Shown here: one piece after another, positions 30,730-56,913 of the stretch
Position numbering within the stretch: the first letter of the stretch is position 1
How the letters are laid out: each line of letters begins with the position of its first letter
From: an uncultured Pseudomonadota bacterium
GTDB taxonomy: Bacteria; Pseudomonadota; Alphaproteobacteria; Rs-D84
Direction of reading: 5' to 3'
DNA: 64,000 bases
Assembly: GCA_902801125.1 (NCBI GenBank)
Contig: CADCGT010000002.1
Span: 7,157-71,156 of the forward strand
Notes under the pieces: generated by a model
Seen by the model: only the letters and a program-made list of their open reading frames with translations
Told to the model about the DNA's origin: nothing
The model's database searches: none
Program-made: the position numbers and the translations under genes

Positions 30730-30742
30730 AAGGAAAACAAAA

Positions 30743-39659: not shown

Positions 39660-40846
39660 TATTTCTTTGTTGGAATTTGCAGTAATTGATTTGTTAGAAT
39701 TAAATCCGGGTTTTCAATATTATTGCGTTCTGCAATTATACTGAACAATACACCGCGACGCAGAAAATTCCGCGCAATAATCCACAAACAATCACCACGA
39801 CGCACAGTATAAAATGTATCGTTGTCGCCCGTCATTTCTGGCATAATAAAGTTGTGATTTACCGTCGCAATCGTTTGGCCGTCACCGTCATGCAACCGCA
39901 CAGTCAGGTTATATTCATTTCCAGGCTTTAATTCACCGACATCGGCACCAACACCAAAATGTTTATAATCTGATACGCGGGCAAATCCCATATATTTATC
40001 ATTTAATGACAAAGACACGCGCAACCGCGGCAATGCGTCACCCGTCACAATTATGCGACCGGTATCAAGATAATCTATCTTTGAAACGACCAAATCGCCA
40101 TCGGTCAAAATAGACGGTGATTGTAAAACGCGACTGCCGTCACGGGTCATCAACAAAGACACAGAATTCCGATAATCCGCATCCGAGATATAAAGGAAAA
40201 CTTTATCTTTGGATTTCATTTTTGGATTTGCCCCCAACAAAGACAATGTATAATTACCCGGTTTTAACCCGGTGTTTGGTGCATAAACAAATTCGCCGTT
40301 TTCATTTGTCCTTTCGGTGGCGACAATTTTATTATTGATTAAAACAGAAATATTTTTATTCGCCTGCCAACGCCCGGCGACAATAATGCCGTTTTCTTTA
40401 ACACGAACAATATCAAATGTTGGAATGTCCGTCGGTTCAACAATATTTTTAACCGTGTCACGCGACACGGTTTCAATTGGTACAGGATTTGCTTTCGCAT
40501 TTGCGTTCATGTCCAATCCAACAACGCGTCCCGGTACACCAACACGAATAAATACAACCCAAACCGCAACAAACAAAACAATCAGCGCGCACAATATTGG
40601 AAACCAATATTCGCGCAACACAGATTTGTTTTTATTTTTTTCATCACGTGTGGTGCGTTCACGAACAACAACTTTTTCTTCTTGTGGTTCAGACTTGCGC
40701 GAAAAAACATTCACGCTTTTAAGGAAACGCCGTGTAAAGTTGCGACGCCGATTTAACCAACCGTTTTGTTGTGCGATTGCTTCGTCAATCATGTTATCGG
40801 TGGAACGTTTTGTCTTGCCGATTGCGGTGCTGTTATTGTTTGCCAT
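39659..40846 (-). CDS. LysM domain-containing membrane protein
   Basis: One TM segment WFPILCALIVLFVAVWVVFI. C-terminal LysM YTVRRGDCLWIIARNF...LQIPTKK. Confidence 0.7.
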   Translation of the reverse strand: MANNNSTAIGKTKRSTDNMIDEAIAQQNGWLNRRRNFTRRFLKSVNVFSRKSEPQEEKVVVRERTTRDEKNKNKSVLREYWFPILCALIVLFVAVWVVFIRVGVPGRVVGLDMNANAKANPVPIETVSRDTVKNIVEPTDIPTFDIVRVKENGIIVAGRWQANKNISVLINNKIVATERTNENGEFVYAPNTGLKPGNYTLSLLGANPKMKSKDKVFLYISDADYRNSVSLLMTRDGSRVLQSPSILTDGDLVVSKIDYLDTGRIIVTGDALPRLRVSLSLNDKYMGFARVSDYKHFGVGADVGELKPGNEYNLTVRLHDGDGQTIATVNHNFIMPEMTGDNDTFYTVRRGDCLWIIARNFLRRGVLFSIIAERNNIENPDLILTNQLLQIPTKK

Positions 40847-40950
40847 AATAATTATCTCCTGCGGATAGTTTTTCTAATGGACAAATTAGCATAAAAAAGT
40901 TTTCTTTGTCAATTTATTTATGATATAATCTTGAAATAAATGGGGGAAAA

Positions 40951-42030
40951 ATGAAAAAAATAGGAATTATGACAACGGGCGGCGATTGCAGTGGCCTTAA
41001 CAGTGTAATAAATCGCGTTGTTTTGGGCGCGTATAATCGTGGTTGGCGCACATTTGGTATTATTGACGGCACAGATGGCCTGTGCCACATGCCGGCGAAC
41101 GCGATAGAATTGACACCGGAATCTTTGCCGATTGAAAACGCGCGCCTTGCGGGCAGTTTTCTGCACAACGGCAATTCCGGGGTTATGAATTTTGAAACCG
41201 CGGTTAAAATGGGGCGCATTGCAACATTTAACAAGAACCTTAAAAAATCTTTGGCGGGCATGGGGCTGGACGCGTTGATTTTAATCGGTGGCAACGGCAG
41301 TTTTTCGCTTGCATACAAAAACAACGATATTTATAACAACCTGTCATTGGTATGTATTCCCAAAACAATCGATTTTGATATACCACTGACCGACCGGACA
41401 ATCGGTTTTGATACGGCGGTAAACGAATTGGTAAAATACTGTGACCAGGTTTTATTGACCGCACGCAGTCATCATCGTTGGTTTGTTGTTCAAACCATGG
41501 GGCGCGAATGTGGGCGGCTTGCGCTGAATGCGGGTGTGGCGGTCGGGGCCGATGCAATCATTGTCCCGGAAATAAAGTTTAACATTCATGATTTGGTTGA
41601 ACATATTAAATGTGCAACACGCGACTATGGCATAATCATGGTATCCGAAGGCATTACAATTCGTGGTCATTCGGGCCGGCCGGCGGATATGATATCGCGC
41701 GCATTGTCGGCCGCGGGCATCAACAACCGTGCCGCATTTCCGGACTATATCCAACGCGCCGGTGACACAACCGCGGCGGACCGGATTACGGCGGCAAAAA
41801 TGGTGACCTGTGCGTTGGATGCGATTGAAAACGGCGAAACAAATGTTATGACGGCGTTGCGCGGGGGCGAATGTATGACGGTGCCATTGGCGGAATTTTA
41901 TGCGGCGGGCGATGTGTCGCCGGACCCGAATATTCCGGACCTGTGCACATCAAACGCATATATTGAACCAGATGACCCATTATTGGATGTTGCCGCGGCA
42001 ATGAACATTTACATCGGTGAAATGAAATAA
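40951..42030 (+). CDS. pfkA: 6-phosphofructokinase
   Basis: MKKIGIMTTGGDCSGLNSVI, IGGNGS, GFDTAVN, PFK family signatures. Confidence 0.88.
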   Translation: MKKIGIMTTGGDCSGLNSVINRVVLGAYNRGWRTFGIIDGTDGLCHMPANAIELTPESLPIENARLAGSFLHNGNSGVMNFETAVKMGRIATFNKNLKKSLAGMGLDALILIGGNGSFSLAYKNNDIYNNLSLVCIPKTIDFDIPLTDRTIGFDTAVNELVKYCDQVLLTARSHHRWFVVQTMGRECGRLALNAGVAVGADAIIVPEIKFNIHDLVEHIKCATRDYGIIMVSEGITIRGHSGRPADMISRALSAAGINNRAAFPDYIQRAGDTTAADRITAAKMVTCALDAIENGETNVMTALRGGECMTVPLAEFYAAGDVSPDPNIPDLCTSNAYIEPDDPLLDVAAAMNIYIGEMK

Positions 42031-42034
42031 AAAA

Positions 42035-42056
42035 TACGGGGCGTTTGCCCCGTATT
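42035..42056. terminator. Bidirectional rho-independent terminator between pfk and dnaK
   Basis: ATACGGGGC-gttt-GCCCCGTAT with A/T runs on both sides. Confidence 0.7.
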
Positions 42057-42074
42057 ATAAGTATCGAATACCGA

Positions 42075-43973
42075 TTATTTCTTTTCAGAAAAATCTGCAT
42101 CACGTGCGCCATCGGATTTGTTGTCGTCCGCATTATTTGCACCGGCGGCATTTTGTGCCTCTTGTTGTGCTTTATACACGGCTTCGCCCAACTTCATGGC
42201 TTTTTCGCTTAACGCATCGGTTTTCGCCTTTAAACTTTCCGCGGTCGCATCAGATTTTGCCAATTCGTCCGCCAAATCTTTCTTGGCGTTTTCAATCGCA
42301 GATTTTTCATCGGCCGAAATTTTATCGCCGTGTTCTTTTAACGATTTTTCAATCGCAAAGATTGCGGTTTCGGCGGCATTTTTTGCCTCGGCCAATTCGC
42401 GTTTCTTTTTATCTGCGTCGGCATTTGCGGCGGCTTCGTCAACCATGCGTTTGATTTCATCTTCGGACAAACCACCATCAGATTTAATCGAAATCGCCTG
42501 TTCTTTGCCAGTGCCTTTATCTTTGGCCGACACATGAACGATACCGTTTGCGTCGATATCAAAAGACACTTCGATTTGCGGCATACCGCGCGGGGCCGGT
42601 GCGATACCTTCCAAATTAAATTGACCCAACAATTTATTATCTGCGGCCATATCGCGTTCGCCTTGGAATACCCGAATTGTCACGGCCGATTGGTTATCTT
42701 CGGCGGTTGAAAAGACCTGGGACTTTTTGGTTGGAATTGTTGTGTTCCGGTCAATAAGGCGCGTGAACACACCGCCCAACGTTTCAATACCCAACGACAA
42801 CGGCGTCACATCCAACAACAGGACATCTTTAACATCGCCCTTTAACACACCACCTTGAATTGCGGCACCCATTGCGACAACTTCGTCCGGGTTCACGCCC
42901 TTGTGCGGTTCACGACCAAAGAATTCTTTGACGGTTTCGACCACTTTTGGCATACGGGTTTGGCCACCGACCAAGATAACTTCGTTGATTTGCGATTTTT
43001 GGATACCCGCATCCGCCAACGCCTTTTTGCACGGTTCGATTGTGCGTTCAATCAAATCGGATACCAAAGATTCCAACTTTGCGCGGGTCAACGTTGTATT
43101 AAAGTGTTTCGGACCCGACGCGTCTGCCGTAAGAAAGGGCAGGTTGATATCGGTTGACATCTTGGACGACAGTTCGATTTTCGCCTTTTCGGCGGCTTCT
43201 TTCAAACGTTGCAACGCCAATTTATCGCCCGACAAATCAATTCCGGTTTGCGATTTGAATTCTTCAATCAAATATTTCAACACGCGCGCATCAAAATCCG
43301 AACCACCCAAGGTCGTATCGCCATTGGTTGATTTTACTTCAAACACGCCGTCAACGATTTCCAACACGGACACATCGAATGTTCCACCACCAAGGTCATA
43401 GACAACAATCGTTCCGTCTTTGTTTTTATCCAAACCATAGGCCAGGGCGGCCGCCGTCGGTTCGTTCACAATACGCAACACATTAAGGCCCGCAATACGC
43501 CCCGCGTCTTTGGTTGCCTGGCGTTGGGAATCATTAAAATACGCCGGCACAGTAATAACCGCATCGGTCACCGTTTCGCCCAAATAACTTTCTGCGTCTT
43601 TTTTCAGTTTTGCCAACACCATAGCCGAAATCTGGGACGGCGCGTATTTTTTGCCGTCAATTTCGACCCATGCGTCGCCATTATCGCCGGCAACAATTTT
43701 ATACGGCACGCGCGCCATAATTTCACGCACGGCGGGACTGTCAAAGCGCAATCCCATAAGGCGTTTAATTTCATAAATAGTATTTTCTGGGTTTGTGACC
43801 GCCTGGTTTTTTGCGGTGACACCAACCAATTGTTCGCCATTTGATGTAATTGCGACGACGGACGGCGTAGTGCGCCCACCTTCGGCGTTTTCAATAATTT
43901 TTGGGTCATTTCCGTCCATGAATGCCATTGCGGAATTTGTTGTTCCCAAATCGATACCAAGTACTTTTGCCAT
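42075..43973 (-). CDS. dnaK: Chaperone protein DnaK (Hsp70)
   Basis: [27 protein letters not shown], full Hsp70 architecture. Confidence 0.98.
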
Positions 43974-44052
43974 AATTCACTCCTATTTGCATTTCTTGTA
44001 TGCCAGAAATATAGTTACCCCAAAACCGATTTCAAGACCATAGGAATAAAAA

Positions 44053-44069
44053 TTAGTGGTTAGTGGACA
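44053..44069 (+). repeat. TTAGTG GTTAGTG repeat upstream of the rplY terminator hairpin
   Basis: Direct reading. Inverted partner CACTAACC at 44099-44106. Confidence 0.5.
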
Positions 44070-44097
44070 ACAAAAAAACGCGGGGCAAACGCCCCGC
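44070..44097 (-). terminator. Rho-independent terminator for rplY
   Basis: Minus strand: CGCGGGGC-gttt-GCCCCGCG followed by TTTTTTTGTT. Confidence 0.7.
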
Positions 44098-44126
44098 GCA
44101 CTAACCAATTTATACTGGCCATTATA

Positions 44127-44747
44127 TTATTTCTTGGCCGGTGCCGCCGGTGCCGCAGCCGCCGCCGGTTTTTTCGCATCGGCTTCTTCAGGCATTTTAC
44201 CACCGATGGTGGCGAATGCCAATTCCGCCTGGTGCAGGCCCAACGACACGCCGTCCGGCAATTTCAAATCCGAACCGTGAACCGTGTCGCCAATGGTCAA
44301 ATCGGCCAAATCCAAAATAATCTTTTCCGGTAATTTATCAACCAAGGCAACAACCGAAACCTTACGAACTGCAAAGTTCAAAACACCGCCCAATTTCAAA
44401 CCCTTGGACGTTTCTGCGTTGATGATTTCAACCGGAACAGACACACAAACCGGCTTTTTAACATCGATGCGTTTGAAATCGACATGAATTATACGGTCGG
44501 TCACCGGGTGATATTGAATATCCATCAACATCGCGTCTTCTTTGCCTTTGCCGGTTGTAATGTTGAAAAGTTTTGTCCGCAACGCCGGAATCACAGATAT
44601 TGGTGCAAAATCACGACCGGAAATTTCAATTGCGACCGGTTCTTTTTTTTCACCATAGATAACGGCGGGGATGTTTTTATTATTACGAATTGCACGTGCG
44701 GCCCCCTTGCCGGCAACATTGCGAATTTCTGCCTTTAATTCAATTGC
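44127..44747 (-). CDS. rplY: 50S ribosomal protein L25 / general stress protein Ctc
   Basis: MAIELKAEIRNVAGKGAARAIRNNKNIPAVIYGEKKEP. Pro/Ala/Lys-rich C-terminal tail. Confidence 0.85.
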   Translation of the reverse strand, partial: AIELKAEIRNVAGKGAARAIRNNKNIPAVIYGEKKEPVAIEISGRDFAPISVIPALRTKLFNITTGKGKEDAMLMDIQYHPVTDRIIHVDFKRIDVKKPVCVSVPVEIINAETSKGLKLGGVLNFAVRKVSVVALVDKLPEKIILDLADLTIGDTVHGSDLKLPDGVSLGLHQAELAFATIGGKMPEEADAKKPAAAAAPAAPAKK

Positions 44748-44845
44748 CATTTTTAGTCCTTTTTGTTTTTTTATGGTCTTGCGCAACCTCCAAGGGTGTT
44801 GCGCGGACGACATTATGTAATAAAACAAACGAAAAATCAAGCATT

Positions 44846-45406
44846 TTATTTGCCACGTCGGCGCAAAATCAAGAATCGCGCCCGACCGTATTTTTTATCC
44901 CGCAAAACATCCCATTTTGTTTCATCGGGCGTATAGGACACATTTGATTCAATTTCTTGGACAACAACGGTGCCGGCCCGCGCCTGTTCCGCCAATTTCG
45001 CGACAAAATCGATTCCGACACGCGCATCTTCATATGGCGGATCAACAAATATCAAATCAACACCAACGGCGTGTTTTTTTATTTCTTTTAATGCGTCTGC
45101 CTTGACAATACGAATACGATTTGCAGCAATATCAGTGGTGTTTTTTGTTATGGTTTTGATTGATGTATCCGATATATCGGTAAAAATCGCCGTTGAATTT
45201 GCATATCGCGACAGGGCTTCCACCCCCAATGCACCGGAACCAGCAAACGCATCCCATACGATAATCTTGTTGCCCGCCGGTATAATAGTCGCCAACATAT
45301 TGAATATTGCCCCGCGTGCCATATTTTGTGTTGGACGGGCAAACGGTGGCAATATCAGCCGCCGCCCACGAAATTCCCCAGAAATAATTTGCAATTTTGA
45401 ATCCAT
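44846..45406 (-). CDS. rsmD: 16S rRNA (guanine966-N2)-methyltransferase RsmD
   Basis: LQIISGEFRGRRLILPP...DAFAGSGALGVEALSR...FVDPPY. Confidence 0.85.
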   Translation of the reverse strand: MDSKLQIISGEFRGRRLILPPFARPTQNMARGAIFNMLATIIPAGNKIIVWDAFAGSGALGVEALSRYANSTAIFTDISDTSIKTITKNTTDIAANRIRIVKADALKEIKKHAVGVDLIFVDPPYEDARVGIDFVAKLAEQARAGTVVVQEIESNVSYTPDETKWDVLRDKKYGRARFLILRRRGK

Positions 45407-45424
45407 GTGGTAGATTCTATATCA

Positions 45425-45871
45425 ATGAACATAATGACGCAAGTTTTAAATTTGGCGCGACGCGCGGGCGACGCGGGCGATGTGCCTGTTGGCGCGGTAA
45501 TTGTCCGCGACGGGAAAATTATTTCACGCGGGGAAAACCTGGTCCAACGGAAAATGAACCCAACATTGCATGCAGAAATCGTTGCGATAAACCGCGCATG
45601 TAGAAAATTGGGAACAAAATTCTTGGACGACTGTGACATTTATGTATCATTGGAACCATGTGCGATGTGTGCGACGGCAATATCTTTTGCACGCATACGC
45701 AATATATACTTTGCGGCACGGGACGACAAGGGCGGCGGCATAACCGCAAACGCCCGCGTGTTTGAAAACGACAAACACCTGTGGCGCCCAAATATAGTCC
45801 AAATGCCGGAATACGCGGACGCGTCCGCCGAATTACTGCGCGGATTTTTTGCCCGGCGGCGAAAACAATAA
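45425..45871 (+). CDS. tadA: tRNA-specific adenosine deaminase TadA
   Basis: HAEIVAI...LEPCAMCA (CDA zinc-binding motifs). Confidence 0.9.
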   Translation: MNIMTQVLNLARRAGDAGDVPVGAVIVRDGKIISRGENLVQRKMNPTLHAEIVAINRACRKLGTKFLDDCDIYVSLEPCAMCATAISFARIRNIYFAARDDKGGGITANARVFENDKHLWRPNIVQMPEYADASAELLRGFFARRRKQ

Positions 45872-45894
45872 CCATAACAAAAAAAAGGAAAAAT

Positions 45895-46455
45895 ATGTCA
45901 AAGAACTTAACTCCTATGGAAAAATTTAACGCAATGGAAGAAAAACGCATATTTAACGAATATATTGTTGTGGATTACAACTGTCGCAATAAAGGCACTG
46001 TTACCGTGACATTGATTTCAACATATACAACCGCAGCCCCTAAACAAATTACATTAGATAATCATTGGGGTGCCCGCAAAAAAATGTTAGATGCAGACAG
46101 TTGTATATGGAACATTGGTTCTTTGGTCACTTTAACCAAAGACGGTAAAATCAAACCGGTTAAATATGATATGCGTAAATGCGACACTATGTTGGTCACC
46201 GGTGCATATAACACCTTTAACACATCGCGAATATTATCGTTGATGGGCAAAAAGTTTGGTCAGACAACACTGTGTATTTCCCCGGAACCAATACATATTT
46301 GGCATCAAAAATTCTATTCAACTGAACGGGGCGATATCGTATTGGTTCGCCCAACCAACCCACAATTGGAACCAGACAACGAATATCAAATCCTGCGTAA
46401 TTTCACAATGGAAGAAAAAATACGCAAGTTTTTTGAATCGCAACGCCAAAGATAA
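45895..46455 (+). CDS. Hypothetical protein (mini-island gene 1)
   Basis: Start at MSKNLTPMEKF with RBS AAAAAGGAAAAATATG. AT-rich, AGA codons, no recognisable motif. Confidence 0.45.
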   Translation: MSKNLTPMEKFNAMEEKRIFNEYIVVDYNCRNKGTVTVTLISTYTTAAPKQITLDNHWGARKKMLDADSCIWNIGSLVTLTKDGKIKPVKYDMRKCDTMLVTGAYNTFNTSRILSLMGKKFGQTTLCISPEPIHIWHQKFYSTERGDIVLVRPTNPQLEPDNEYQILRNFTMEEKIRKFFESQRQR

Positions 46456-46537
46456 TACCACGGTGCATTACAAGTGCCGGAATATGTGGGCGTGTTTGCC
46501 GAACGGCGAAAAAAAGAATAAAATAAAAAGATTAAAA

Positions 46538-47422
46538 ATGTTAAAGAATAGGTGGGTTGTTACCAAGAAAAATAATGTTGCAAATTGTCCCGGTATATTT
46601 AATTACACTATTGTTCCTGTGGATGGATGGGGCGACAAGGATGATTATGAATTATATGATAAAGACATTTTATCAAAACGAAATCTTGATATTGGCACAT
46701 ATACCGATGATGACCTGAACCCGGTATATGAACACTATAAATACCTGAACACCGATATCGCCACCGTAGAATCAACCACAGTCCAGGTGTATAAACCTGG
46801 CATGACCCGGTTAAATGTTTTTGGGGACCGTTTTGGTGAATTTTCCTTTTTGGTTGATGACCAAGGCATACCGTTCAGAATCACCCGTGGCGATAACATC
46901 TTGGTTCAGCGCAAATATGACGTGGCGGACTTTGTGTGGCCCCAAAAACCCGATGATGATGACGATGAATACAGCGACCCATTATTGCAGGATATTATGG
47001 GGACACGCCGTGAAATGCAAAGATGCCAAGAACCAGAAGAATTGGTTGGGCCTTACTTTCACATACTGTATAATGTGACCACAAAACGCAAAGCAAAAAG
47101 TTTTCCAAAAACCAAAAAAACGCACTCAAAAAGTAATTTCGGCGATTGTGACCGTGTGGTCGTATTGGGTGTTTCACCCACATGTCTTGAATACGATATG
47201 CAAAAGCACCTGATTATACACAGTGACAAATTCGGGTTAATAAGTTGTTTGGCCGATGAATATCAATCCGAATTTCATGCCTATACCCAAGATAAACTTT
47301 TAATTCAGCAATACTATGATTACAACGCGGGCGAAATTGCATACAGGATACTGGCCAACAAAACCATCGATGACATGCGCAGCTTGATGTTAAGACGGAA
47401 TATTCAATTCCGTCATCGGTAA
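46538..47422 (+). CDS. Hypothetical protein with poly-Asp tract (mini-island gene 2)
   Basis: Start at MLKNRWVV with RBS AAAAAGATTAAAAATG. KPDDDDDEYSD acidic tract. Confidence 0.45.
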   Translation: MLKNRWVVTKKNNVANCPGIFNYTIVPVDGWGDKDDYELYDKDILSKRNLDIGTYTDDDLNPVYEHYKYLNTDIATVESTTVQVYKPGMTRLNVFGDRFGEFSFLVDDQGIPFRITRGDNILVQRKYDVADFVWPQKPDDDDDEYSDPLLQDIMGTRREMQRCQEPEELVGPYFHILYNVTTKRKAKSFPKTKKTHSKSNFGDCDRVVVLGVSPTCLEYDMQKHLIIHSDKFGLISCLADEYQSEFHAYTQDKLLIQQYYDYNAGEIAYRILANKTIDDMRSLMLRRNIQFRHR

Positions 47423-47426
47423 CAAA

Positions 47427-48899
47427 CTAAATCAAACTTTTACCGGTCATATCGGCGGGCTTTGGCATGCCCAACAATTTTAATATTGTTGGGGCCACAT
47501 CGGCCAATCCACCGTTTTTAATCTTTTTTACCCGTGGTTCGCCAACCATAATCGCACGCACTTTGTTGTTTGTGTGCGCCGTCCATGGTGCATTTGCTTT
47601 ATCGTCCCACATTTTTTCTGCGTTTCCGTGGTCCGCGATAATAAGCATTTTTCCGCCAAGTTTCAACACCGCCGGAACAATTTCCGCCAATTGCGCATCA
47701 AGGCATTCCATGGCACGAATTGCCGCAGATTCATTTCCGGTATGTCCAACCATATCGCCATTGGCAAAGTTCATCAACACCACATCAAACCTGTCAAGGC
47801 GTGGCAACAATGCACGCGTAATTTCCGGCGCAGACATTTCCGGTTTCAAATCAAATGTTGCGACATTCGGCGAATCAATCAACACCTTTTCTTCGCCGGG
47901 AAAATCGATCGTGCGTTCCGCATCCATAAAGTATGTGACATGATTATACTTTTCGGTTTCAGCGATACGCAACTGACGCAATCCCGCCGCCGCAATAACA
48001 TCACCCAAGGTATTTTTAACCGGAATATCAGAAAGCAGTGCAGGGCATTTTTCATTTAATCCTTCGCCATATTGTGAAAAGCATAACATATGCGCACCCG
48101 TATCCAACATGGCACGCACAATCTGGCGCGCGCGGTCACTGCGATAATTTCCAAATACAAATCCATCACGCGCGGTAATTGGCGTGGCATTTATAATTGT
48201 CGGTTTGAAAAATTCATCGGTCACGCCCGCGGCATAGGATTGTTTAATCGCGTCTTCGATGGTATCCGCATGCGCGTCGGCCGTCGCATTTGCAATTGCA
48301 TTAAACGCCAATTCTGTGCGGTCCATATTCTTGTTGCGGTCCATCGTCCAATACCGCCCAGAAAGGGTTCCAAAGAACGCGCGTCCGTCCGCAAAATACG
48401 GTGCCAACATGCGTTTAATTGTTCGAACATATTTTAATGCAGATTTCGGTGGCGTGTCGCGCCCATCGCCAATAAAATGAATACAAACGCGCAATCCCGC
48501 GTCAAGGATGTATTTTGCAATCTTCATTTCGTCGCGCACATCGGAATGCACACGCCCATCGGACATAAGGCCCGCAAAATGCACAATTCCGCCATCGCGC
48601 CGCACATCGGCAATAAAATTATTTAACGGTTTATTTTTCGTCCAATCTTCACGCGCGAACCGCAACAGGTATTGCATAACTACGCGCCCGGCACCGATAC
48701 AGATATGTCCAACCTCGGAATTACCCATCAAATTACCCGGCAACCCGACGGCGGTTCCACTTGCGCGCAACAAAGAATTCGGATATTTCTTAACCAAGCC
48801 ATTAAAAAACGGCATTTTTGCCATTTCCACCGCATTATGTTCACGCACATCACTGACCCCAACACCATCAAGGATACATAAAACAACTGGTTTTGTCAT
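47427..48899 (-). CDS. gpmI: 2,3-bisphosphoglycerate-independent phosphoglycerate mutase
   Basis: MTKPVVLCILDGVGV...; metal-binding and Ser-phosphorylation motifs of iPGM. Confidence 0.95.
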   Translation of the reverse strand: MTKPVVLCILDGVGVSDVREHNAVEMAKMPFFNGLVKKYPNSLLRASGTAVGLPGNLMGNSEVGHICIGAGRVVMQYLLRFAREDWTKNKPLNNFIADVRRDGGIVHFAGLMSDGRVHSDVRDEMKIAKYILDAGLRVCIHFIGDGRDTPPKSALKYVRTIKRMLAPYFADGRAFFGTLSGRYWTMDRNKNMDRTELAFNAIANATADAHADTIEDAIKQSYAAGVTDEFFKPTIINATPITARDGFVFGNYRSDRARQIVRAMLDTGAHMLCFSQYGEGLNEKCPALLSDIPVKNTLGDVIAAAGLRQLRIAETEKYNHVTYFMDAERTIDFPGEEKVLIDSPNVATFDLKPEMSAPEITRALLPRLDRFDVVLMNFANGDMVGHTGNESAAIRAMECLDAQLAEIVPAVLKLGGKMLIIADHGNAEKMWDDKANAPWTAHTNNKVRAIMVGEPRVKKIKNGGLADVAPTILKLLGMPKPADMTGKSLI

Positions 48900-49031
48900 A
48901 ATTTCCCCCATAATTAGAATTTATTGTCCATAAATCATATCACAACGCTTTTTTGATTGCAAAACAAAAAGAAAAATAGTATGTATAAATAAAACTAGGA
49001 CATGTGTCCTTGTGGATTAAAGGGGAAAATT

Positions 49032-49460
49032 ATGGCAGGCAAGTCATATATACCAACTGCTGTGGACCAACATATCGGCAAACGCATGCAACTGCGTCGG
49101 ACTATGCTTGGGCTATCATTAAAAGACTTGGCGAAAATTTGTGGTGTCACATTTCAACAGATTCAAAAATATGAAACGGCGGACAATCGTATATCTGCGT
49201 CGCGTCTGTTTGAAATTGGTATGGCGATGCAAACGCCGGTTTCGTTTTTCTTTAACGGGTTGCCGGGGAATATGCCGGACGAAACGCGCGCGACGCGTTC
49301 CATGCACCTGCATCAACCGGATTTGAACGAAAATTTGGACGACCCAATGTTGCGCACAGAAAGCCTTAAATTGGTCCGTCTTTATTGGCGCCTTGCCAAT
49401 GATGAACAGCGTGCGGCCATCATGAATATGTTAAAGACAATGGTTGGCGCGCCGGAATAG
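49032..49460 (+). CDS. XRE-family (Cro/C1-type) helix-turn-helix transcriptional regulator
   Basis: IGKRMQLRRTMLGLSLKDLAKICGVTFQQIQKYETADNRISASRLFEI. RBS AAAGGGGAAAATTATG. Confidence 0.7.
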   Translation: MAGKSYIPTAVDQHIGKRMQLRRTMLGLSLKDLAKICGVTFQQIQKYETADNRISASRLFEIGMAMQTPVSFFFNGLPGNMPDETRATRSMHLHQPDLNENLDDPMLRTESLKLVRLYWRLANDEQRAAIMNMLKTMVGAPE

Positions 49461-49481
49461 GGCGCCCAAGGTAAAAATTCA

Positions 49482-49510
49482 ACACCGCCAAACGGCGGTG
49501 TATTTTTGTT
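49482..49510. terminator. Rho-independent terminator (convergent junction)
   Basis: ACACCGCC-aaac-GGCGGTGT followed by ATTTTTGTTT. Confidence 0.7.
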
Positions 49511-49559
49511 TATTGCACATAAAACACCGACCAGCCGGCCGATGTATTATTTGGGTCAC

Positions 49560-51632
49560 CTATTGATCAGCCTTTGGTGCCGCACAAGTCGAACAAGCCT
49601 CCATAGCGGTTACACGACTTTGCAACGCCGTGTAATTTGCGGACAATGTACTATAATTATTCTGCAACGTGGTATAACTATTCCGCAAATCGGTAAGTTG
49701 CGCCTGCAATCCCTGTGTACAATTACCACCATCAGAAACACTGGTGCCACTGCATGTGCCATTAACAGTTGTTTCAACGGTACCTAAACGCCCCAGAACA
49801 CTGTTCGCACCGGCCGTACCTATACCAACCGTAGTGTTCAAAGTGTTAATCTGTGACGTATGACCACTGGCTGTGGTTTGTGCGCTTTGTGCTGCGCTTA
49901 ACGCACTGGATGCGTCGTTGGCCGCATTGTTCGCGGTGGTCTCGACGGTTGTCAATGCCGACTTGGTCGCATAGGTGCTTGATGCGTTGTTTTGTGTTAA
50001 ATACGTACTGCTGGCATCAGTCTGTTTTAGATACGTGTTGGTTGCATCGGTTTTGCTAAGGTACGTACTTTGCGCGTCTGTTTTATTCAACTTGTCATCC
50101 AAACCGCTTAATGCGCTGGCTGCATCTTGCTTTGCCTGGGTTGCATCGGTTGATGCCGTATTCGCGGTACTTACCGCATTTGCCGCACTTGTCTTGGCAT
50201 CTGCAACATCTTTGACCAGGCCACCGGACGCATTGCCAATGGTACTGGTGTTTGTTGTCACCTGTTTAACCAGACCGCCATTCGAATCACCAACCGTTGT
50301 TTCCAACGCAGTAATTTTGCCATCTGCGGTATTCAACGCCGTTTGTGTTGCGTACGTTGATGACGCATCCGCACTGGTAAGGTATCCGGTTAACGCACCC
50401 GAACCCGCAACCGCGCTTGCCAAATCTGTCTTCACAGAATTGTCCTTTAACGCGGTTCCCAAATTCGCCGTTTGCAGATACGAACTTAATGTCGTATTCA
50501 AACTATCGGTCGTTACCTTGTTAGATGTTGCCGACGTGATTTTATTGGTCACTTGAGCTGACGTATCATAATCCGACAACGCCGTGCTTATCGCACTGTT
50601 TACATCGGACGATGTCACCTTGTTTGCGACCGCATTATCGGTATAAGTTTCCGCCGCAGTTTGCGCCGCATCAATTGCCGTAGAAATTGCACTGGCATTT
50701 TGTGTGGTTATCGGACGACAGATATTATATACCGCACTGGTATCTTGACGTGCACATTCCATATATACTCCGTCATTACCACTGCATATATCCTTGTTTG
50801 ATGAAACAATTGGAACACACGTATCTTCATAATCTGTGCTGTTTATGGTATCGTTGCACATTGTTTGCGCCAATCTTACATACCCCGCCTTCGTCGCAGT
50901 CGGCGCCGTATATGTTTTTGTATACGTTTTCACCGCGGTCGCCGGATTTGCAACATTATCGCAAATTCCGACACCGTTTGTACCCGGCGCACCATCGTTA
51001 CCATCCTGACCGTCCGGTATATCCACCGTACTGGTGCTGCCGCAACCACTAATGGTCACAACTGTCTTTTTATTCGTGGCATCATGTGCACTGCTGAATG
51101 TCGGTTCGCAATTTGTACCATTGGTACCCGGCGCACCGTCACATACCAGTTTATTAACTGGTGTGCCGGCGGTACAGGCGTCATTTACCAAAGAATACGG
51201 TGTCTTGGTAATAGTATAGCAACCCTGGGCATTCTTATCGCTAATATCAACCTTGTCCGCACAACCCGGCGCACCGTCTTGACCCGCGGCACCGTCTGTA
51301 CCGTCTTGAACGGTTTCCGTCCAAACCGTGGTGTTATTACAATCCGTTGCCGTCAGTGTCGTTGTGCCCCCAACTTTACTCTTGGTAATCGTCGTTGCAC
51401 AACCTGGCGCGCCATCTTGACCCGCGGCACCGGTTGCGCCAACCAGCGATGCCAAGAAATCGGCCTCGCTTCCGGTATTACCGGCATCCTGCCAAATCTG
51501 ATATGCAGATTTACCGGTTGCACCAACAGGAACCTTGATAGTTCCCATGGTTGTCTGTGCGGAAACATTATCGGTCACACCGAAACCCAACAACACAGCA
51601 CCACACAAACACAACAAACTTACTTTCTTCAT
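49560..51632 (-). CDS. Large secreted fibre protein with collagen-like GxY triplets, Cys-paired beta modules and Ala/Thr/Ser-rich coiled-coil repeats
   Basis: Signal peptide MKKVSLLCLCGAVLLGFGVTDNVSA. Repeated GQDGAPGC / DGAPGTNG. Module shared with the next gene (VANPATAVKTYTKTYTA...YEDTCVPIV). STY-rich heptads. Confidence 0.6.
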   Translation of the reverse strand: MKKVSLLCLCGAVLLGFGVTDNVSAQTTMGTIKVPVGATGKSAYQIWQDAGNTGSEADFLASLVGATGAAGQDGAPGCATTITKSKVGGTTTLTATDCNNTTVWTETVQDGTDGAAGQDGAPGCADKVDISDKNAQGCYTITKTPYSLVNDACTAGTPVNKLVCDGAPGTNGTNCEPTFSSAHDATNKKTVVTISGCGSTSTVDIPDGQDGNDGAPGTNGVGICDNVANPATAVKTYTKTYTAPTATKAGYVRLAQTMCNDTINSTDYEDTCVPIVSSNKDICSGNDGVYMECARQDTSAVYNICRPITTQNASAISTAIDAAQTAAETYTDNAVANKVTSSDVNSAISTALSDYDTSAQVTNKITSATSNKVTTDSLNTTLSSYLQTANLGTALKDNSVKTDLASAVAGSGALTGYLTSADASSTYATQTALNTADGKITALETTVGDSNGGLVKQVTTNTSTIGNASGGLVKDVADAKTSAANAVSTANTASTDATQAKQDAASALSGLDDKLNKTDAQSTYLSKTDATNTYLKQTDASSTYLTQNNASSTYATKSALTTVETTANNAANDASSALSAAQSAQTTASGHTSQINTLNTTVGIGTAGANSVLGRLGTVETTVNGTCSGTSVSDGGNCTQGLQAQLTDLRNSYTTLQNNYSTLSANYTALQSRVTAMEACSTCAAPKADQ

Positions 51633-51662
51633 ATCAACATCTCCATAAATTATCAATTGTCT

Positions 51663-52901
51663 TTAATCGTTGCAAATAATATCATAGGCTACCGCAGTTT
51701 CGCTTGATTGTCCTGGATTAGGCGCCACACTGAACGAATTACATCCTTTATCACCTTTTTCACCCTTGATGTCCGCCAATGCAACAACATTTTTGGTTGT
51801 GTCTCCATCGGTCAAAACAATATATCCCGTTTGGGTATTTGTGCTAAAAGTTGCATTTTTAGATATTTTGCTATCCGCTGTTGATTGCGCATTCGCCGCC
51901 GCAGTATTTGCCTGGGATGCCAACGAATATGTCGCCGCCAAACCAGTTGTATTATTATCAACCTTGTTCGCGGTTGTGGTTGCGGTTGATTGCGCATTGT
52001 CCGCGGCTGATTGTGCCGCGCCAATGGCCGCGCCTATTGACTGTGCGTTTTCACTGGTCACAGTCTTGCAGATATTATACGTGTTGCCGCCATTTTGTGG
52101 GGTGCATTCCATATATGTTCCATTACTGCAAATATTTTGTGCGGTTCGCGTTGGAACAATTGGCACACAGGTATCTTCATATATTGTGTTATTGGTATTG
52201 TTGTCGCACATGGTTTGCTCCAATGTCACATAACCCGCAGCCGTTGTTGTGTGTGCAGTATATGTCTTGGTATATGTTTTAACCGCCGTTGCCGCATTTG
52301 CAACCCCGTCACAGATTCCCGCGCCATTGTTACCGTCGGCAATTTCAAAACTTTGGTTTGTCGAACCGCATACATATTGTACTGTTGTTTTGCGTGCAGT
52401 CGAATTATAGGCACTGGTAAACGACGGTGTGCACGGTTCTGCGCCATCGGCAATTTCAAAACTTTCATCTGTGTTGCCACAGGTATATCTTACCGTCGTC
52501 TTGCGCGTGGCATCGTTATGTGATGAGGTAAATGCCGGAATACATGCATCCTGACCCGCGGTTCCTTGTGGTCCCTGTGGACCGACGGGTCCCTGTTCAC
52601 CTTGTTCACCCTTGAACGGAACACCACCACCCGGACACGTTGGAAACGCGGTTCCATTATAAATGTAAAGCAATCCTTCATCACGGTTGTAATATGCGTC
52701 ACCCTGGATCATGCCAGTCAATTGCCCAAGTTCAGTACAATTATCAACCTCTCCCTTGTAAGTAATGCCTACACCCGGTTCACCTTGGGGACCGCGCGGA
52801 ACGGTGATAGTTCCGATAACTGTCGATGCCGCATACGCACCCGCGCCAATCAACATGGCAACCGCCGCACAGATTCCACCAAAAATTTTTGCTTGTTTCA
52901 T
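51663..52901 (-). CDS. Secreted collagen-like repeat protein, paralog of 49560-51632
   Basis: Signal peptide MKQAKIFGGICAAVAMLIGAGAYA; GEQGEQGPVGPQGPQGTAGQD; duplicated CxPxFTSxxNxTxRKTTVxYxCG modules; shared VANAATAVKTYTKTYTA block. Confidence 0.6.
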   Translation of the reverse strand: MKQAKIFGGICAAVAMLIGAGAYAASTVIGTITVPRGPQGEPGVGITYKGEVDNCTELGQLTGMIQGDAYYNRDEGLLYIYNGTAFPTCPGGGVPFKGEQGEQGPVGPQGPQGTAGQDACIPAFTSSHNDATRKTTVRYTCGNTDESFEIADGAEPCTPSFTSAYNSTARKTTVQYVCGSTNQSFEIADGNNGAGICDGVANAATAVKTYTKTYTAHTTTAAGYVTLEQTMCDNNTNNTIYEDTCVPIVPTRTAQNICSNGTYMECTPQNGGNTYNICKTVTSENAQSIGAAIGAAQSAADNAQSTATTTANKVDNNTTGLAATYSLASQANTAAANAQSTADSKISKNATFSTNTQTGYIVLTDGDTTKNVVALADIKGEKGDKGCNSFSVAPNPGQSSETAVAYDIICND

Positions 52902-52946
52902 TTTTTCCTTCCTTTTTTTTTATTTTAATTGTTTGTTTATTGTTTT

Positions 52947-54464
52947 TTACTTTGCTGCCCCATCTTCACACACCAGGTTGTATGTTGCTCCGCCGGCGTC
53001 TGTTGATACAGGCTCCAAACTTATACCACCCGGGCATGGGTTCACACCACGTTTAACTGTATAGCGTCCAAGAACCTTACTGCTATCTTCTTTACAGGTT
53101 ATTACAACATCTGTATCGCCGTTGGCATTTTCGGTGCCGGTATATTGTGGCTCGCAGGCATCCGCACCATCATTTCCATTATTTCCGGCCGGCCCAGTAA
53201 TATCATTTACCGAAACAATGTCTTTTACAACACCATTTTCTGGATCGGTATAGACAATTTTTCCATCAGAAATACTAAATGTGCCATCGTTGCTTAACAC
53301 CTCACTCTTTTTCGCATATTCGCCAAGGGCAGATTTATCCGCCTTGTCGGTTTGCAGGCCACTGATGCTTGTCTCATTTGTGCCGACACGAGCGCCAAGC
53401 GCTGTTAAATCAGATTCTTTTGCAAAACCTGCACCATCAACCGCCTGTGTAATCAATTCGGAAACACGATTTTCATCAAACCCAGATGACGCATTTTCAA
53501 TTTTCGCATCAACGTCCGCCTTGCTGTACGAAAAATCTTTACCGGCATAATATTCGTCCGCTTGTTCCCTGGTCAGTTTTCCATCCGCCGCAGATTGTGC
53601 GCTTTGTGCCGCCAACAATGCTTCATCGGCCTTGGAACCGGCATTTTCCGCCGCGGATTGTGCCGTGGTTATTTTGCCGTCTGTGGTTGCTTTATCTGTA
53701 TCATAGGTTTCACGTGTCACATAATTTCCGGACAAAAATTCTTTGGACGGTAAATCTTTTTCATCAATCTTTTCATTTACAACGCGTTCCAACTGGGCCG
53801 CATCAACCGAACCGTCCTCGCCTTTCTCACCCCTGTCACCTTTGTCGCCCTTAAGGTCGGACAAAAGTGCCACATTTTTGGTGACACCGTTGCCATCGGT
53901 CATAATAATATGCGTATCATTCTTGGAAAAACTGACATTCTTGTCCAAGGCATAATCTTTCATTGCGTTCTCGTCAACCAATTTCTTTTCATCGGCACGT
54001 GTATCAAATTTAGATTCAAATTCGTCCTTGGCCAATTTCGCGCTGTCCGCATCGTCAACATACGGAACCGTAGCGTAATTTTTGTTTGCCAATTCAGAAT
54101 CCAAAATATCGCGAACCGCGCCTTCGTCAACGCCGGCATTGCGTAACGCATCTACATCCGCGGATAATTCACTTAATTTATCCTGTAAATCGGCAACCGC
54201 CGCCGCAGACGCGCCCGATGGCAATTTCGGTTTTGCCCCAAGGTTATTCATGCCCGCCAATGTCGCCATACGCGATGGTTCGGATGAAACCGTTGGCGTC
54301 GCCACCGACGACGATGACACAGACCGCGACCCGGTCACCCCCGGTTGAACACGCAACGACCCGGCACGCCCAGGAACGGCCGCCACGGCACTTCCCGCCG
54401 CAAACACAGCCCCCATACAGCTTGCCATCGCTACTACACTAACAAACTTTTTCTTACCCAACAT
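52947..54464 (-). CDS. Secreted collagen-like / coiled-coil repeat protein
   Basis: Signal peptide MLGKKKFVSVVAMASCMGAVFAAGSAVAA. KGDKGDRGEKGEDG triplets. TDGNGVTKNVALLSDLKGDKGD block shared with 51663 gene. Cys-containing C-terminal domain. Confidence 0.6.
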   Translation of the reverse strand: MLGKKKFVSVVAMASCMGAVFAAGSAVAAVPGRAGSLRVQPGVTGSRSVSSSSVATPTVSSEPSRMATLAGMNNLGAKPKLPSGASAAAVADLQDKLSELSADVDALRNAGVDEGAVRDILDSELANKNYATVPYVDDADSAKLAKDEFESKFDTRADEKKLVDENAMKDYALDKNVSFSKNDTHIIMTDGNGVTKNVALLSDLKGDKGDRGEKGEDGSVDAAQLERVVNEKIDEKDLPSKEFLSGNYVTRETYDTDKATTDGKITTAQSAAENAGSKADEALLAAQSAQSAADGKLTREQADEYYAGKDFSYSKADVDAKIENASSGFDENRVSELITQAVDGAGFAKESDLTALGARVGTNETSISGLQTDKADKSALGEYAKKSEVLSNDGTFSISDGKIVYTDPENGVVKDIVSVNDITGPAGNNGNDGADACEPQYTGTENANGDTDVVITCKEDSSKVLGRYTVKRGVNPCPGGISLEPVSTDAGGATYNLVCEDGAAK

Positions 54465-54486
54465 TTTACACCTTTCCTTTTTGTTT

Positions 54487-56913
54487 TTAATTACCAGATG
54501 AAGATATATAACACACCCCATCCAAATAATATCCTGTTCCTAACTCGGCACACTTGTGTTCGTACCATGAATCATAGAATATACACATACGATTCGCTTC
54601 GTCCCATCTTGTTACCGGGTTTTCCGTCGTTCCCCATATATCTTGATAATATTCGCATGCCAATTTCGCGCTGCTTCTGAAACAGTATCCCCACCCGGAC
54701 CCGTCTGCACGATTCGCCGTTGTTCCATCATTGCCATCACCCGTCGGTGGCGTATTCCCGCCAAACGCCGTATCATAAAACGCCAACAGCAATTCAGAAC
54801 CATCCGTATTCCGCGTATCGATATGTGACCACATTCCGCCCAATTCTGTACACACATCGGCCAATGCGCCACTCATTGCATCATCTACATCACGAATCAG
54901 CCAATCCACACGCGATCTAACGGTTTCTGGCAAACTGATATAATTTCCCGCACCACCATTGATCGGGTCGGCGCAATTACTGGCCGCGAAATTCTGTATA
55001 TTTGTCGTCAATTCGTTTTTCGACAACCGGCGACAGTTATATGGATACGAATATGTTGAATCCGGCGCGCACAGGTCTTGAACATATTCATCCAATGCCG
55101 CGATACATTTTTCCGCCACACTTAACGAATCAACCGCCGACACATAATTCAACAAAGATGTCAAACCACAATTTGCCCCGCTGTTGGTAAGGTGACCGCG
55201 CGAATCAAAACTGCATTGCGTCGTTTGTTCCCGGTTACCCCATAATGTTGCACACGCCACAACGCGTTCGTGGCACATATCGCCCGCCACATAACGTGCC
55301 AACGCCGCCGCGGTTGTCGCCGTATTTTTATCCACATTCTTTAATGCATTTGTTTGCGTGTCATAGCATTCAGAAATTACATTCACACACGAAGATTTAA
55401 CTTCTTCTATTTTTTCTGTTTGCGCCTGGGCAATTTCAATAATGGCGTTGCGTTTGAATTCCGTCCAAACGAAATCCGCGATGTCACGGCATGTATCCAA
55501 TGCGCCGGCCGCATATTTACGATATGTTTCCAAGAAATTAGAATAGGTGGGGTTTTGTCCAATTATGTCGGTCACAACATCCCCATTCGTCGTCACGCCA
55601 TCCAACGCAATTGTTTGTTCCAATTGGAACAGGCGCGGGCTGTAAATTGCCTCTCCGGTGGCACCATTTATATATGCACCCGTCGGGTCTAAACACCGTT
55701 TATAGTTTGCGCCGCACGCGGTATCCGCCAATATCGCATTACGCACATTGGCGATACATTCATTGACATCGGCCGAATTATGCGCACGATATTCTTCCAG
55801 GCGCGCCTCGCGCAAATACTTTTCCGCCATACGCACCGCAGATGCCACCGTTTCGCGTTTTTTATTCAGTGTCTTTTCGTATGTGTTGCAATCCTGGGTA
55901 ATTAAAATATTATAAGAACTGCGCGCCATGGTTGCGACAGAATTACTGCTGCACATTTCTGCACTAAGGTTTGCGCACTGGCGTTGCGCCGCATTGAACA
56001 GCGCACTGCCTTCTAAACTGGATATATCCGATGTTGTCGAAGAAAATATAGACGACACATCATTTGACCAGATATCATCTAAATCGGTTGAAAAATTCAA
56101 ATCAAGTATACCAATGGAATTTCCGGTTCCCGAATATGTTGTGTTGGATTTTCCAGACAATAAATCACTTATTGCGTCCAATGTCTTGGCGGCGGCACTG
56201 GTGTCGCGTTTAATTGCCAATTCACCAACAGTTGCGGAATACATTGCTTCAACCTCGGCCGCGGTTTTATCGACCGCGTTCAGGTTGTTATCTTGAAAAT
56301 CTTGCAACATAATCATTGCCTGGTCCAAAGAATTTTCAATTTCGCGGAATTTTACAAATCGGTCACTGCAAAAACAGCGGCGATATGTATCATTTGCGTT
56401 TGCGCACATTTGGTCCATACATGTTGAATACGATTCACGACACGCGGCATAACCGGAACCAATCTTGCTTACATCATTAAAGACCGCGGTTGCACGGGCG
56501 GCCGATGCACTGCGCGCGATTCCCGCCATTCCCGATACGGTCTTTTTACCGGTGCGGGCATTTGTCGGCATGGACGCTGTTGCGGTCCTTGCGCTGCGTG
56601 CGCGGGCGACCGGCAACGCACTGCGTGTCGCAGACCCCGCACGCAGGTTCGGCGTGTCCGCCACACGAACCGCCGTTATAGTTGTCGCGCTGCGTCCGCC
56701 ATTTGAATTTACACGGGTTGGACCAATCGCGCGAATACGCGTTGGGTTTGCCACCGCGCGACGCGATGAAACATCCCCAGATAACGATTGTCGCGCCGAA
56801 ACATCCGAATCGGTTGCACGCGGATTCACCGGCATGGCCGCAAAGGAATGCGCACACACAGATGCCGCAAATACCGCAAAAAACCAAGAAAAATTCTTTG
56901 TTTTTGATACCAA
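54487..56913 (-). CDS. Large secreted Cys-rich protein (808 aa), first gene of the fibre-protein cluster
   Basis: Probable TTG start with RBS AAGGGAG. Signal peptide VSKTKNFSWFFAVFAASVCAHSFAA. RSA/RAT low-complexity stretch then ~650 aa with >30 Cys. Confidence 0.5.
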   Translation of the reverse strand: MVSKTKNFSWFFAVFAASVCAHSFAAMPVNPRATDSDVSARQSLSGDVSSRRAVANPTRIRAIGPTRVNSNGGRSATTITAVRVADTPNLRAGSATRSALPVARARSARTATASMPTNARTGKKTVSGMAGIARSASAARATAVFNDVSKIGSGYAACRESYSTCMDQMCANANDTYRRCFCSDRFVKFREIENSLDQAMIMLQDFQDNNLNAVDKTAAEVEAMYSATVGELAIKRDTSAAAKTLDAISDLLSGKSNTTYSGTGNSIGILDLNFSTDLDDIWSNDVSSIFSSTTSDISSLEGSALFNAAQRQCANLSAEMCSSNSVATMARSSYNILITQDCNTYEKTLNKKRETVASAVRMAEKYLREARLEEYRAHNSADVNECIANVRNAILADTACGANYKRCLDPTGAYINGATGEAIYSPRLFQLEQTIALDGVTTNGDVVTDIIGQNPTYSNFLETYRKYAAGALDTCRDIADFVWTEFKRNAIIEIAQAQTEKIEEVKSSCVNVISECYDTQTNALKNVDKNTATTAAALARYVAGDMCHERVVACATLWGNREQTTQCSFDSRGHLTNSGANCGLTSLLNYVSAVDSLSVAEKCIAALDEYVQDLCAPDSTYSYPYNCRRLSKNELTTNIQNFAASNCADPINGGAGNYISLPETVRSRVDWLIRDVDDAMSGALADVCTELGGMWSHIDTRNTDGSELLLAFYDTAFGGNTPPTGDGNDGTTANRADGSGWGYCFRSSAKLACEYYQDIWGTTENPVTRWDEANRMCIFYDSWYEHKCAELGTGYYLDGVCYISSSGN

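Follow-up and report, generated by a model that had tools for sequence, protein, structure and literature searches.

The DNA analyzed here is a stretch of 64,000 nucleotides (nt), referred to below as the window, from a Candidatus Enterousia of the order Rs-D84. Between tadA and gpmI it carries two consecutive open reading frames, ORF1 and ORF2, which represent a new protein family of a known fold type in a known type of variable locus. This family lives only in the tadA-gpmI gap of Candidatus Enterousia and related Rs-D84 gut bacteria. The reading that we favor, and that we consider probable, is that a functional, lineage-restricted family of barrel proteins occupies a mini-island that is shuffled by recombination. 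The mini-island is laterally exchanged and accreted, and one private protein family has evolved in place within it. An initial annotation of the window had described the two genes, of 186 and 294 amino acids (aa), as a mini-island wedged between tadA and gpmI. Both ORFs are present there, Pfam matches confirm the flanking genes, and the mini-island idea stands in a more specific form, based on empty slots, variation within species, a scar of the tadA 3' end and a mosaic of 96% versus ~80% identity. The coordinates of all features are collected in Table 1.

Exact and near matches to this DNA come only from ruminant and other animal-gut metagenomes and metagenome-assembled genomes (MAGs), with the labels Alphaproteobacteria bacterium or Candidatus Enterousia. 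Rs-D84/Enterousia genomes are smaller than 1 Mb and lack respiration and most biosynthesis, and these organisms are predicted to be obligate symbionts or parasites that depend on a partner (PMC12306168). Clues to this lifestyle are presumably hidden among the unannotated genes, of which the tadA-gpmI locus provides a cleanly delimited example.

Profile comparisons place ORF1 and ORF2 in what appears to be one narrow, lineage-restricted superfamily. ORF1 has 24 clusters of homologues at 38-95% identity and ORF2 has 8 at 40-96%. When the two family profiles were compared, residues 88-182 of ORF1 aligned with residues 196-287 of ORF2 (E = 5e-6, probability 86%). The ORF1 profile also aligned with the N-terminal half of ORF2 (residues 1-130; E = 2.4e-5, with a probability of only 50%) and with the C-terminal half (residues 170-294; E = 8e-7, probability 84%). 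A search of 1.84 billion representative proteins with this profile returned only 16 matches, among them the ORF2-like proteins P0036 and P0039 together with other relatives of 150-290 aa. Because the ORF1 profile aligns with both halves of ORF2 and retrieves ORF2-like proteins, ORF2 appears to have arisen by internal duplication of an ORF1-like unit, with an acidic linker between the two copies. This linker contains the KPDDDDDEYSD tract to which the initial annotation had drawn attention. Common to the family are the motifs GKKFG, RGDxVLV and YxILRNFT, followed by a C-terminal helix, and these motifs are kept in more than 40 distinct intact members, whose identity ranges from below 25% up to 96%. 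The ratio of nonsynonymous to synonymous divergence (dN/dS) of ORF1 stays at 0.1-0.3 and the selection is therefore purifying but relaxed; both ORFs are real, functional genes.

Outside of this lineage the family has no recognizable relatives in the collections that we searched. Neither ORF matched Pfam, NCBIfam or PDB sequences in profile searches, and a scan of both against PHROG gave no match, with a best E of at least 0.13. The sequence-defined families of the oligonucleotide/oligosaccharide-binding (OB) fold (Pfam SSB, tRNA_anti-codon, S1, CSD and eIF-1a) likewise failed to match ORF1 or ORF2. A Pfam scan of 29 aligned members yielded eIF-1a as the sole OB-type match, in one member and with E = 0.15, and a Pfam scan of the remote relatives found nothing. 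No signal peptide or membrane segment is predicted in either protein. Many other genes of the window are also without a Pfam match, and a missing database match is not unusual for this genome.

TadA is the conserved left anchor of the slot, with 82-94% amino acid identity among relatives, and 23 nt separate its stop codon from the start of ORF1. The convergent gpmI gene is the right anchor, and only 4 nt lie between its stop codon and that of ORF2. All family members with a visible genomic context sit between tadA and gpmI, including the remote relatives on the short contigs L029 and L030, and family hidden Markov models (HMMs) matched nothing elsewhere in the window. A census of the slot, seeded with TadA in metagenome contigs, provided 58 complete examples. 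The slot was empty in 19 of these (4-51 nt), one family member was found in another 19 and two in 7, while 13 slots held other genes, for instance a predicted membrane protein of 85-98 aa. In the empty slot L037, TadA and GpmI are 84% and 88% identical to those of the window, as close as in cassette-bearing genomes. Copy number ranges from 0 to 4, and the L002 slot contains four genes plus a 49-aa fragment. The idea that every genome has at least one family member in this slot was overturned by this census.

The other occupants of the slot are of several kinds. The protein of 85-98 aa occurs in distant Rs-D84 slots (L053 2595-2927, L063 2187-2528 and L068 5431-5712) and has one predicted membrane segment. 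It is not related to the twin-barrel proteins, and its C-terminus (KQYQ, KQK or KQR) is basic in a similar way. A 215-aa slot gene with the ending AQIQR (L002 9337-9984; L025 8509-9156) has no detectable similarity to the ORF1 and ORF2 families (profile probability < 1%) and may be a third, unrelated cassette type. Finally, members of a secreted multi-copy family with signal peptides lie in the tadA-gpmI slot of L012 (8641-9384, minus strand) and L017 (10603-11298, minus strand), and window paralogues of this family are found at 2986-3504, 35261-35986 and 36094-37566.

The content of the slot changes far more rapidly than its anchors. Across the genus, dN is 0.4-0.57 among ORF1 relatives versus 0.06-0.12 for tadA and gpmI. 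Variation is also evident within species. L002 and L025 belong to one species, with flanks that are 98-99% identical, but their gene sets differ and their ORF2 alleles share only ~70% identity; in its N-terminal part, the L025 ORF2 is 90-95% identical to that of the window. L031 is from the same species as the window, with nucleotide identities of 95.7% for ORF2, 96.3% for gpmI and 96.9% for the helix-turn-helix (HTH) gene. Its slot contains only ORF2, located directly behind an intact tadA, and no ORF1.

The cassette has also crossed a species boundary. In another species, represented by three independent assemblies (L016, L024 and L038), the tract 45940-47453 is 96% identical to that of the window, whereas the flanks are far more divergent, with identities of 82% for tadA, 79% for gpmI, 69-70% for rsmD and 86% for dnaK. 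Sliding identity plots and breakpoint alignments place one end of the exchanged tract within the 5' end of ORF1 and the other 27 nt inside the 3' end of gpmI. In agreement with this, dS between the window and the exchange partner is 0.10 for ORF1, as opposed to 0.84 for tadA and 0.65 for gpmI. An assembly chimera in a single MAG was rejected as the source of the mosaic, since two further independent assemblies show the same pattern. In L016 (831-2009), ORF2 is split within the acidic-linker region into ORFs of 151 and 141 aa, although it is intact in L024 and L038; this split reflects either an assembly error or a strain-level disruption. A second mosaic tract is found in the window at 49560-50464 (minus strand), in the 3' part of a gene for a 698-aa protein. 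It is 97.5% identical to L038, in which the neighboring gpmI and HTH genes are only 79% and 70% identical, so that exchange between these species extends beyond the tadA slot.

A record of accretion is preserved in the spacer between the two ORFs. A direct repeat of the tadA 3' end brackets ORF1, and the copy in the spacer is decayed and carries a deletion. This copy aligns with genuine tadA 3' ends of relatives, and in its 3' part the scar is identical to the stretch of L031 that comprises the tadA stop region and the ORF2 leader. A comparable scar exists in L002, where a fragment of the tadA 3' end lies ahead of the 215-aa gene; in L025, from the same species, this gene follows an intact tadA. 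The scar also accounts for an observation of the initial annotation, which had quoted a shared translation-initiation context for the two genes. The quoted strings are indeed present, AAAAAGGAAAAATATG from position 45882 ahead of ORF1 and AAAAAGATTAAAAATG from 46525 ahead of ORF2, and they are alike because both leaders descend from the tadA 3' end and stop region. No match to an integrase, transposase or recombinase was found in the slot or in the scanned neighboring genes, and since there is no integrase, homologous or illegitimate recombination through the flanks seems a better description of the events than site-specific integration.

From these data we propose the following sequence of events as the simplest one. 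The gap between tadA and gpmI would probably have been empty in the ancestor. Today it appears to act as a hot spot of recombination, with cassettes being gained, stacked, replaced and lost through crossovers in the conserved 3' ends of the two anchor genes. An earlier state of the window was likely tadA-ORF2-gpmI, as is seen in L031. A segment with a tadA 3' end and ORF1 on it may then have been inserted upstream of ORF2, stranding the resident tadA 3' end as the decayed scar that now forms the ORF2 leader. The composite cassette would have moved between the two species at a later time.

What might these proteins do? The AlphaFold2 model of ORF1 is confident, with a predicted local distance difference test (pLDDT) score of 85 and a predicted template modeling (pTM) score of 0.81. 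Both of the barrels in this model (residues 22-88 and 97-169) are predicted to have the strand order b1-b2-b3-helix-b4-b5, which is the OB topology. The unit of the family, as modeled, is a pair of small OB-topology barrels; behind them come a C-terminal helix and a basic tail, the last residue of which is usually Arg. The ORF1 model was used for fold searching and the low-confidence ORF2 model was left out. Foldseek returned nothing significant, and the best matches include the tandem-barrel Teb1 AB, ModG, eIF5A and PrgE. TM-scores to solved structures were at most 0.38 and none of these structures matches the whole two-barrel arrangement; a comparison with predicted viral structures gave no meaningful match. 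Most ORF1 relatives are basic, with an isoelectric point (pI) of 8.4-9.6, and the proteins contain 18-25 aromatic residues each. Based on these basic, aromatic-rich relatives, on the OB topology and on the mixture of basic and acidic segments in ORF2, we infer with low confidence that the ORF1 and ORF2 proteins may bind single-stranded nucleic acid. The rapid turnover suggests a role against phages or mobile elements, or in relation to a partner cell, rather than a housekeeping function. Two other candidate functions were rejected. A toxin-antitoxin pair does not fit, because many genomes have ORF1 alone in the slot and no match of the toxin-antitoxin kind was obtained. An immunity array behind a deaminase toxin does not fit either, because the product of the upstream gene is an ordinary 154-aa TadA, which has no extra domain and is conserved among relatives as noted above.

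The initial annotation had pointed to the composition of the two genes when suggesting that they may belong to an acquired pool, and composition was examined here quantitatively. The 45 other genes of the window served as the reference, with a GC content of 0.457 +/- 0.035. ORF1 has a GC content of 0.378 (z = -2.3) and ORF2 of 0.407 (z = -1.4), and at third codon positions the z-scores are -1.7 and -0.8, so that the genes are AT-rich as claimed but depart only modestly from their neighbors. AGA and AGG make up 6 of the 29 Arg codons in the two ORFs taken together, compared with 53 of 889 in the background (Fisher p = 0.008) and 30 of 110 in the operon discussed below. Nearly the whole of this excess resides in ORF2 (5 of 18); ORF1 uses AGA for 1 of its 11 Arg codons, like tadA, and the enrichment described by the initial annotation therefore applies to the pooled ORFs and to ORF2, not to ORF1. 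Its description of the proteins as rich in Lys, Asn and Asp is borne out only for Asp in ORF2 (z = +3.0), while neither Lys nor Asn stands out (z between -0.4 and +1.0). The clearest departure in amino acid usage is instead a low content of Ala in both proteins (z = -2.1 each). An A-rich Shine-Dalgarno (SD) sequence does not mark acquired genes in this genome, because 5 of the 17 other genes with a recognizable SD are equally A-rich; such sequences precede the genes at 4827, 6587, 16477, 51663 and 57587, among others, and housekeeping genes are included. Further, a lower GC content and a higher use of AGA/AGG than in neighboring genes recur in the ORF1 and ORF2 relatives of every related genome. 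A recent foreign origin deduced from composition alone was therefore rejected.

Several points weigh against the reading of a functional barrel family in a recombination-shuffled mini-island, or against parts of it. The low GC content and frequent AGA/AGG codons are family traits across the genus and provide no evidence of recent foreign origin. The AlphaFold2 model of ORF2 is poor (pLDDT 59); in the linker, pLDDT is below 50 over residues 128-142 and 152-171, and a helix is placed at residues 148-163. Barrels of the OB type can have sugars, metals or proteins as ligands as well, and one of the top structural matches, ModG, binds molybdate. None of the PADLOC-DB v2 defense models matches either ORF at E up to 1, and no relatives of either family were found when both alignments were scanned against IMG/VR viral contigs. 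Chimeric metagenome contigs are unlikely, given the three independent assemblies, although formally possible, and the order and direction of the recombination events are inferred from few genomes.

The initial annotation had suggested that ORF1 and ORF2 may belong to the same acquired gene pool as a 10-gene operon in the window, as paralogues or as functionally linked cargo. The distance of about 14 kb that it gave is accurate (14,092 nt as measured). The operon occupies a conserved slot of its own with variable content, between DUF2155/amiA/tsaD/xseA genes and PQ-loop/L19/trmD genes, and like ORF1 and ORF2 it is lineage-restricted and without database matches, with a lower GC content, A-rich SD sequences and more AGA/AGG, which account for 27% of its Arg codons and for 21% in the two ORFs, compared with 6% in the background. 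Most of these shared traits are generic. A more specific one is the C-terminal residue. Arg is last in 8 of the 10 operon proteins (as GR, SR, ER, VR or NR), a ninth ends in RQ, and the clear exception is op7, which ends in YSD. Both ORF1 and ORF2 also end in Arg, as compared with only 4 of 50 other genes in the window (Fisher p = 7.5e-6 for the operon and p = 0.011 for the two ORFs). Relatives of the operon keep this ending in 5 of 6 and 8 of 10 proteins (L026 9720-13161 and L028 5316-11150), including operon genes that are not orthologous. In the slot family, 22 of 41 distinct members end in Arg versus 19 of 203 long ORFs of the same contigs, in which Lys dominates; these counts use members that are related to one another and so overstate independence, although the trait spans members with less than 25% identity.

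Paralogy, on the other hand, found no support when the pairwise and profile comparisons were made. BLASTP of ORF1 and ORF2 against the operon proteins revealed no similarity (best E 0.28 in a 13-sequence database), profile comparison with all ten of these proteins gave probabilities of at most 0.8%, and the family HMMs matched nothing in the operon loci L026-L028. The operon core (op1 and op5-op10) is 78-94% identical across the genus, with some operon members varying in presence, whereas ORF1 relatives are 38-50% identical. The evolutionary rates thus differ about fivefold, and the operon is in a different evolutionary regime. The A-rich SD sequences are genome-wide and the likeness of the ORF1 and ORF2 leaders stems from the duplicated tadA 3' end, as described above. 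One form of the shared-pool proposal would make the proteins of both loci substrates of a single export or recognition system, but neither the window nor the relatives' loci showed any secretion machinery. Apart from the C-terminal Arg the proposal is mostly unsupported, and we regard a common pool, or a functional link of the kind that the shared Arg might indicate, as unlikely.

The C-terminal Arg may also be considered from the standpoint of the slot family itself, as part of a basic signal through which exported effectors are recognized before acting on a partner or host cell. This would explain the rapid diversification and is in keeping with the enrichment for Arg, with the fast evolution, duplication and exchange between species, and with the partner-dependent lifestyle predicted for Rs-D84 (PMC12306168). 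In Agrobacterium, substrates of the VirB/D4 type IV system are marked at their C-terminus by a positively charged signal rich in Arg, according to the citation of Vergunst 2005 in PMC8525350, and by analogy this might offer a lead. Against export, the same lack of a visible secretion system in the window and the relatives' loci applies here, no signal peptide is present, and Arg is kept as the last residue in only ~54% of the family, in which Lys, Ile, Tyr and His also occur at this place. Effectors are, in our judgment, quite unlikely. A broader version would be that Enterousia possesses a repertoire of C-terminal-Arg proteins, comprising the slot family and the orphan operon, in which Arg is a signal for export, sorting or controlled degradation, and that the tadA-gpmI slot is an integrase-free diversity-generating locus, at which these proteins would be shuffled between species while an arms race goes on against phages or a partner cell. 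This idea, too, we hold to be rather improbable as a whole.

The position of ORF1 raises the possibility that its product serves TadA as an accessory subunit and binds tRNA in the manner of OB proteins, the gene being co-transcribed with tadA and coupled to it in translation. The gene is always directly downstream of tadA, at a distance of 10-25 nt or with an ATGA overlap (L012), the ORF1 relatives are basic, and the OB structure matches include tRNA-binding and anticodon-binding domains. Transcription probably does read through from tadA into the cassette, because the gap is only 23 nt, no terminator lies between tadA and ORF1, and in relatives the start codon overlaps the tadA stop or follows it closely. 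A promoter and terminator scan of the cassette revealed no terminator inside and only weak promoter-like sites. L002 (~8400-8450) and L006 (~9905-9955) do have a near-consensus promoter (TTGACA, a spacer of 16-17 nt and TATAAT) just past tadA and before the cassettes; no promoter of this type is present in the window, where ORF1 follows tadA so closely. A subunit of TadA would hardly be expected to be missing from 19 of 58 slots, including L037 with flanks as close as those of cassette carriers, or to vary in copy number from 0 to 4. In addition, L006, L025 and L031 have no ORF1-type gene, dN of the family is four to six times that of tadA, and the length of TadA is ordinary. Bacterial TadA acts as a homodimer and is not known to require a partner. 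We therefore consider an accessory subunit very unlikely. Least credible of all, to the point that it can be set aside, is that the ORFs are non-functional remnants or chance ORFs in an AT-rich intergenic region: the lack of annotation, the GC content below that of neighbors and the fragments in relatives (the 49-aa remnant in L002 and the split ORF2 in L016) are outweighed by the low dN/dS, by the more than 40 intact members with conserved motifs, by the confident fold prediction for ORF1 and by an opposite strand without any ORF longer than 62 aa.

Table 1. Coordinates of the tadA-gpmI slot, its contents and the 10-gene operon in the window.
Feature	Position	Strand	Description
tadA (tRNA adenosine deaminase)	45407-45871	+	Pfam PF00383/PF14437, E = 1e-27 to 1e-30
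Functional tadA 3' end and stop region	45800-45882	+	copy 1 of the direct repeat around ORF1
ORF1	45895-46455	+	186 aa; pI 9.3; predicted soluble
ORF1 layout (predicted)			N-terminal helix, barrel 1 (aa 22-88), barrel 2 (aa 97-169), C-terminal helix, SQRQR tail
Decayed copy of tadA 3' end (insertion scar)	46471-46529	+	in the 82-nt ORF1-ORF2 spacer; 71-79% identical to 45800-45882
ORF2	46538-47422	+	294 aa; two ORF1-like units
ORF2 N unit	aa 1-127		pI 5.1, acidic
ORF2 acidic linker	46919-47050	+	aa 128-171; net charge -10; mostly low-confidence in the model
ORF2 poly-Asp tract	46952-46966	+	aa 139-143, within KPDDDDDEYSD, inside the acidic linker
ORF2 C unit	aa 172-294		pI 9.3, basic
Recently exchanged tract	45940-47453	+	96% identical to the cassette of L016, L024 and L038, whose flanking genes are at 70-87%
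gpmI (2,3-bisphosphoglycerate-independent phosphoglycerate mutase)	47427-48911	-	Pfam PF01676/PF06415
10-gene operon	25857-31803	+	own conserved slot with variable content; no database matches

Inspection of the surroundings of the slot provided some further observations. The region is without tRNA genes, and an Rfam scan of 40000-52000 gave no match. Adjoining tadA is an rsmD-like methyltransferase gene (44846-45406, minus strand), the product of which is only 55-74% identical in most comparisons between relatives, as against 82-97% for TadA, GpmI and L25 of the same relatives, a divergence that is unusually fast for a housekeeping gene. Beyond gpmI, six genes at 49560-58096 (minus strand; 698, 412, 524, 808, 198 and 169 aa) have no Pfam match; in relatives, too, this position is taken up by large genes that lack annotation. 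GAxGQDGAPG repeats and extended runs rich in Ser, Thr and Ala suggest a surface structure for the 698-aa protein.

As a whole, these results describe a family that is under purifying selection and yet is swapped between species and reshuffled within species with no involvement of mobility genes. The locus can be used as a marker of variation at the strain level, and ORF1 and ORF2 are tractable targets for biochemistry directed at nucleic-acid binding and at the role of the acidic linker. The shared C-terminal Arg offers a hint, open to testing, that the many orphan proteins of these genomes may have a sorting or recognition signal in common. A low GC content and A-rich leaders, for their part, are family and genome traits at this locus and no proof of recent foreign origin.

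These proteins and their locus may be compared with known systems at two levels. The predicted barrels recall OB nucleic-acid binders with at least two barrels (telomere binders of the RPA/Teb1 type, the N-terminal domain of RecO, S17, eIF1A and the SSB-like plasmid protein PrgE), but the ORF1/ORF2 family has no sequence relationship to Pfam OB families or to PDB entries, and its conserved motifs are private to it. Bacterial SSB and gp2.5 of phage T7 are single-strand binding proteins with an acidic regulatory tail through which they regulate themselves. ORF2 resembles these in that it pairs a basic barrel unit (pI 9.3) with an acidic segment (-10). It differs in that the acidic tract is internal rather than C-terminal, in that neither a Pfam match to SSB nor a DDDIPF-like tip is present, and in that ORF1 has no acidic tract.

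The locus itself invites comparison with integration hot spots and genomic islets. Unlike integrative islands, the tadA-gpmI slot contains no mobility gene and the target is the 3' end of a protein-coding gene, not a tRNA gene; the cassettes are only 0.5-1.5 kb in length and nearly all of them belong to one protein family that is found nowhere else. The direct repeat of the 3' end of the target gene, which brackets the inserted ORF1, is like that produced by tandem island accretion. As in genomic islets, a variable slot that is either empty or filled lies between conserved anchor genes and differs between strains, the composition of the cassettes departs from that of their neighbors, and the cassettes move between species.

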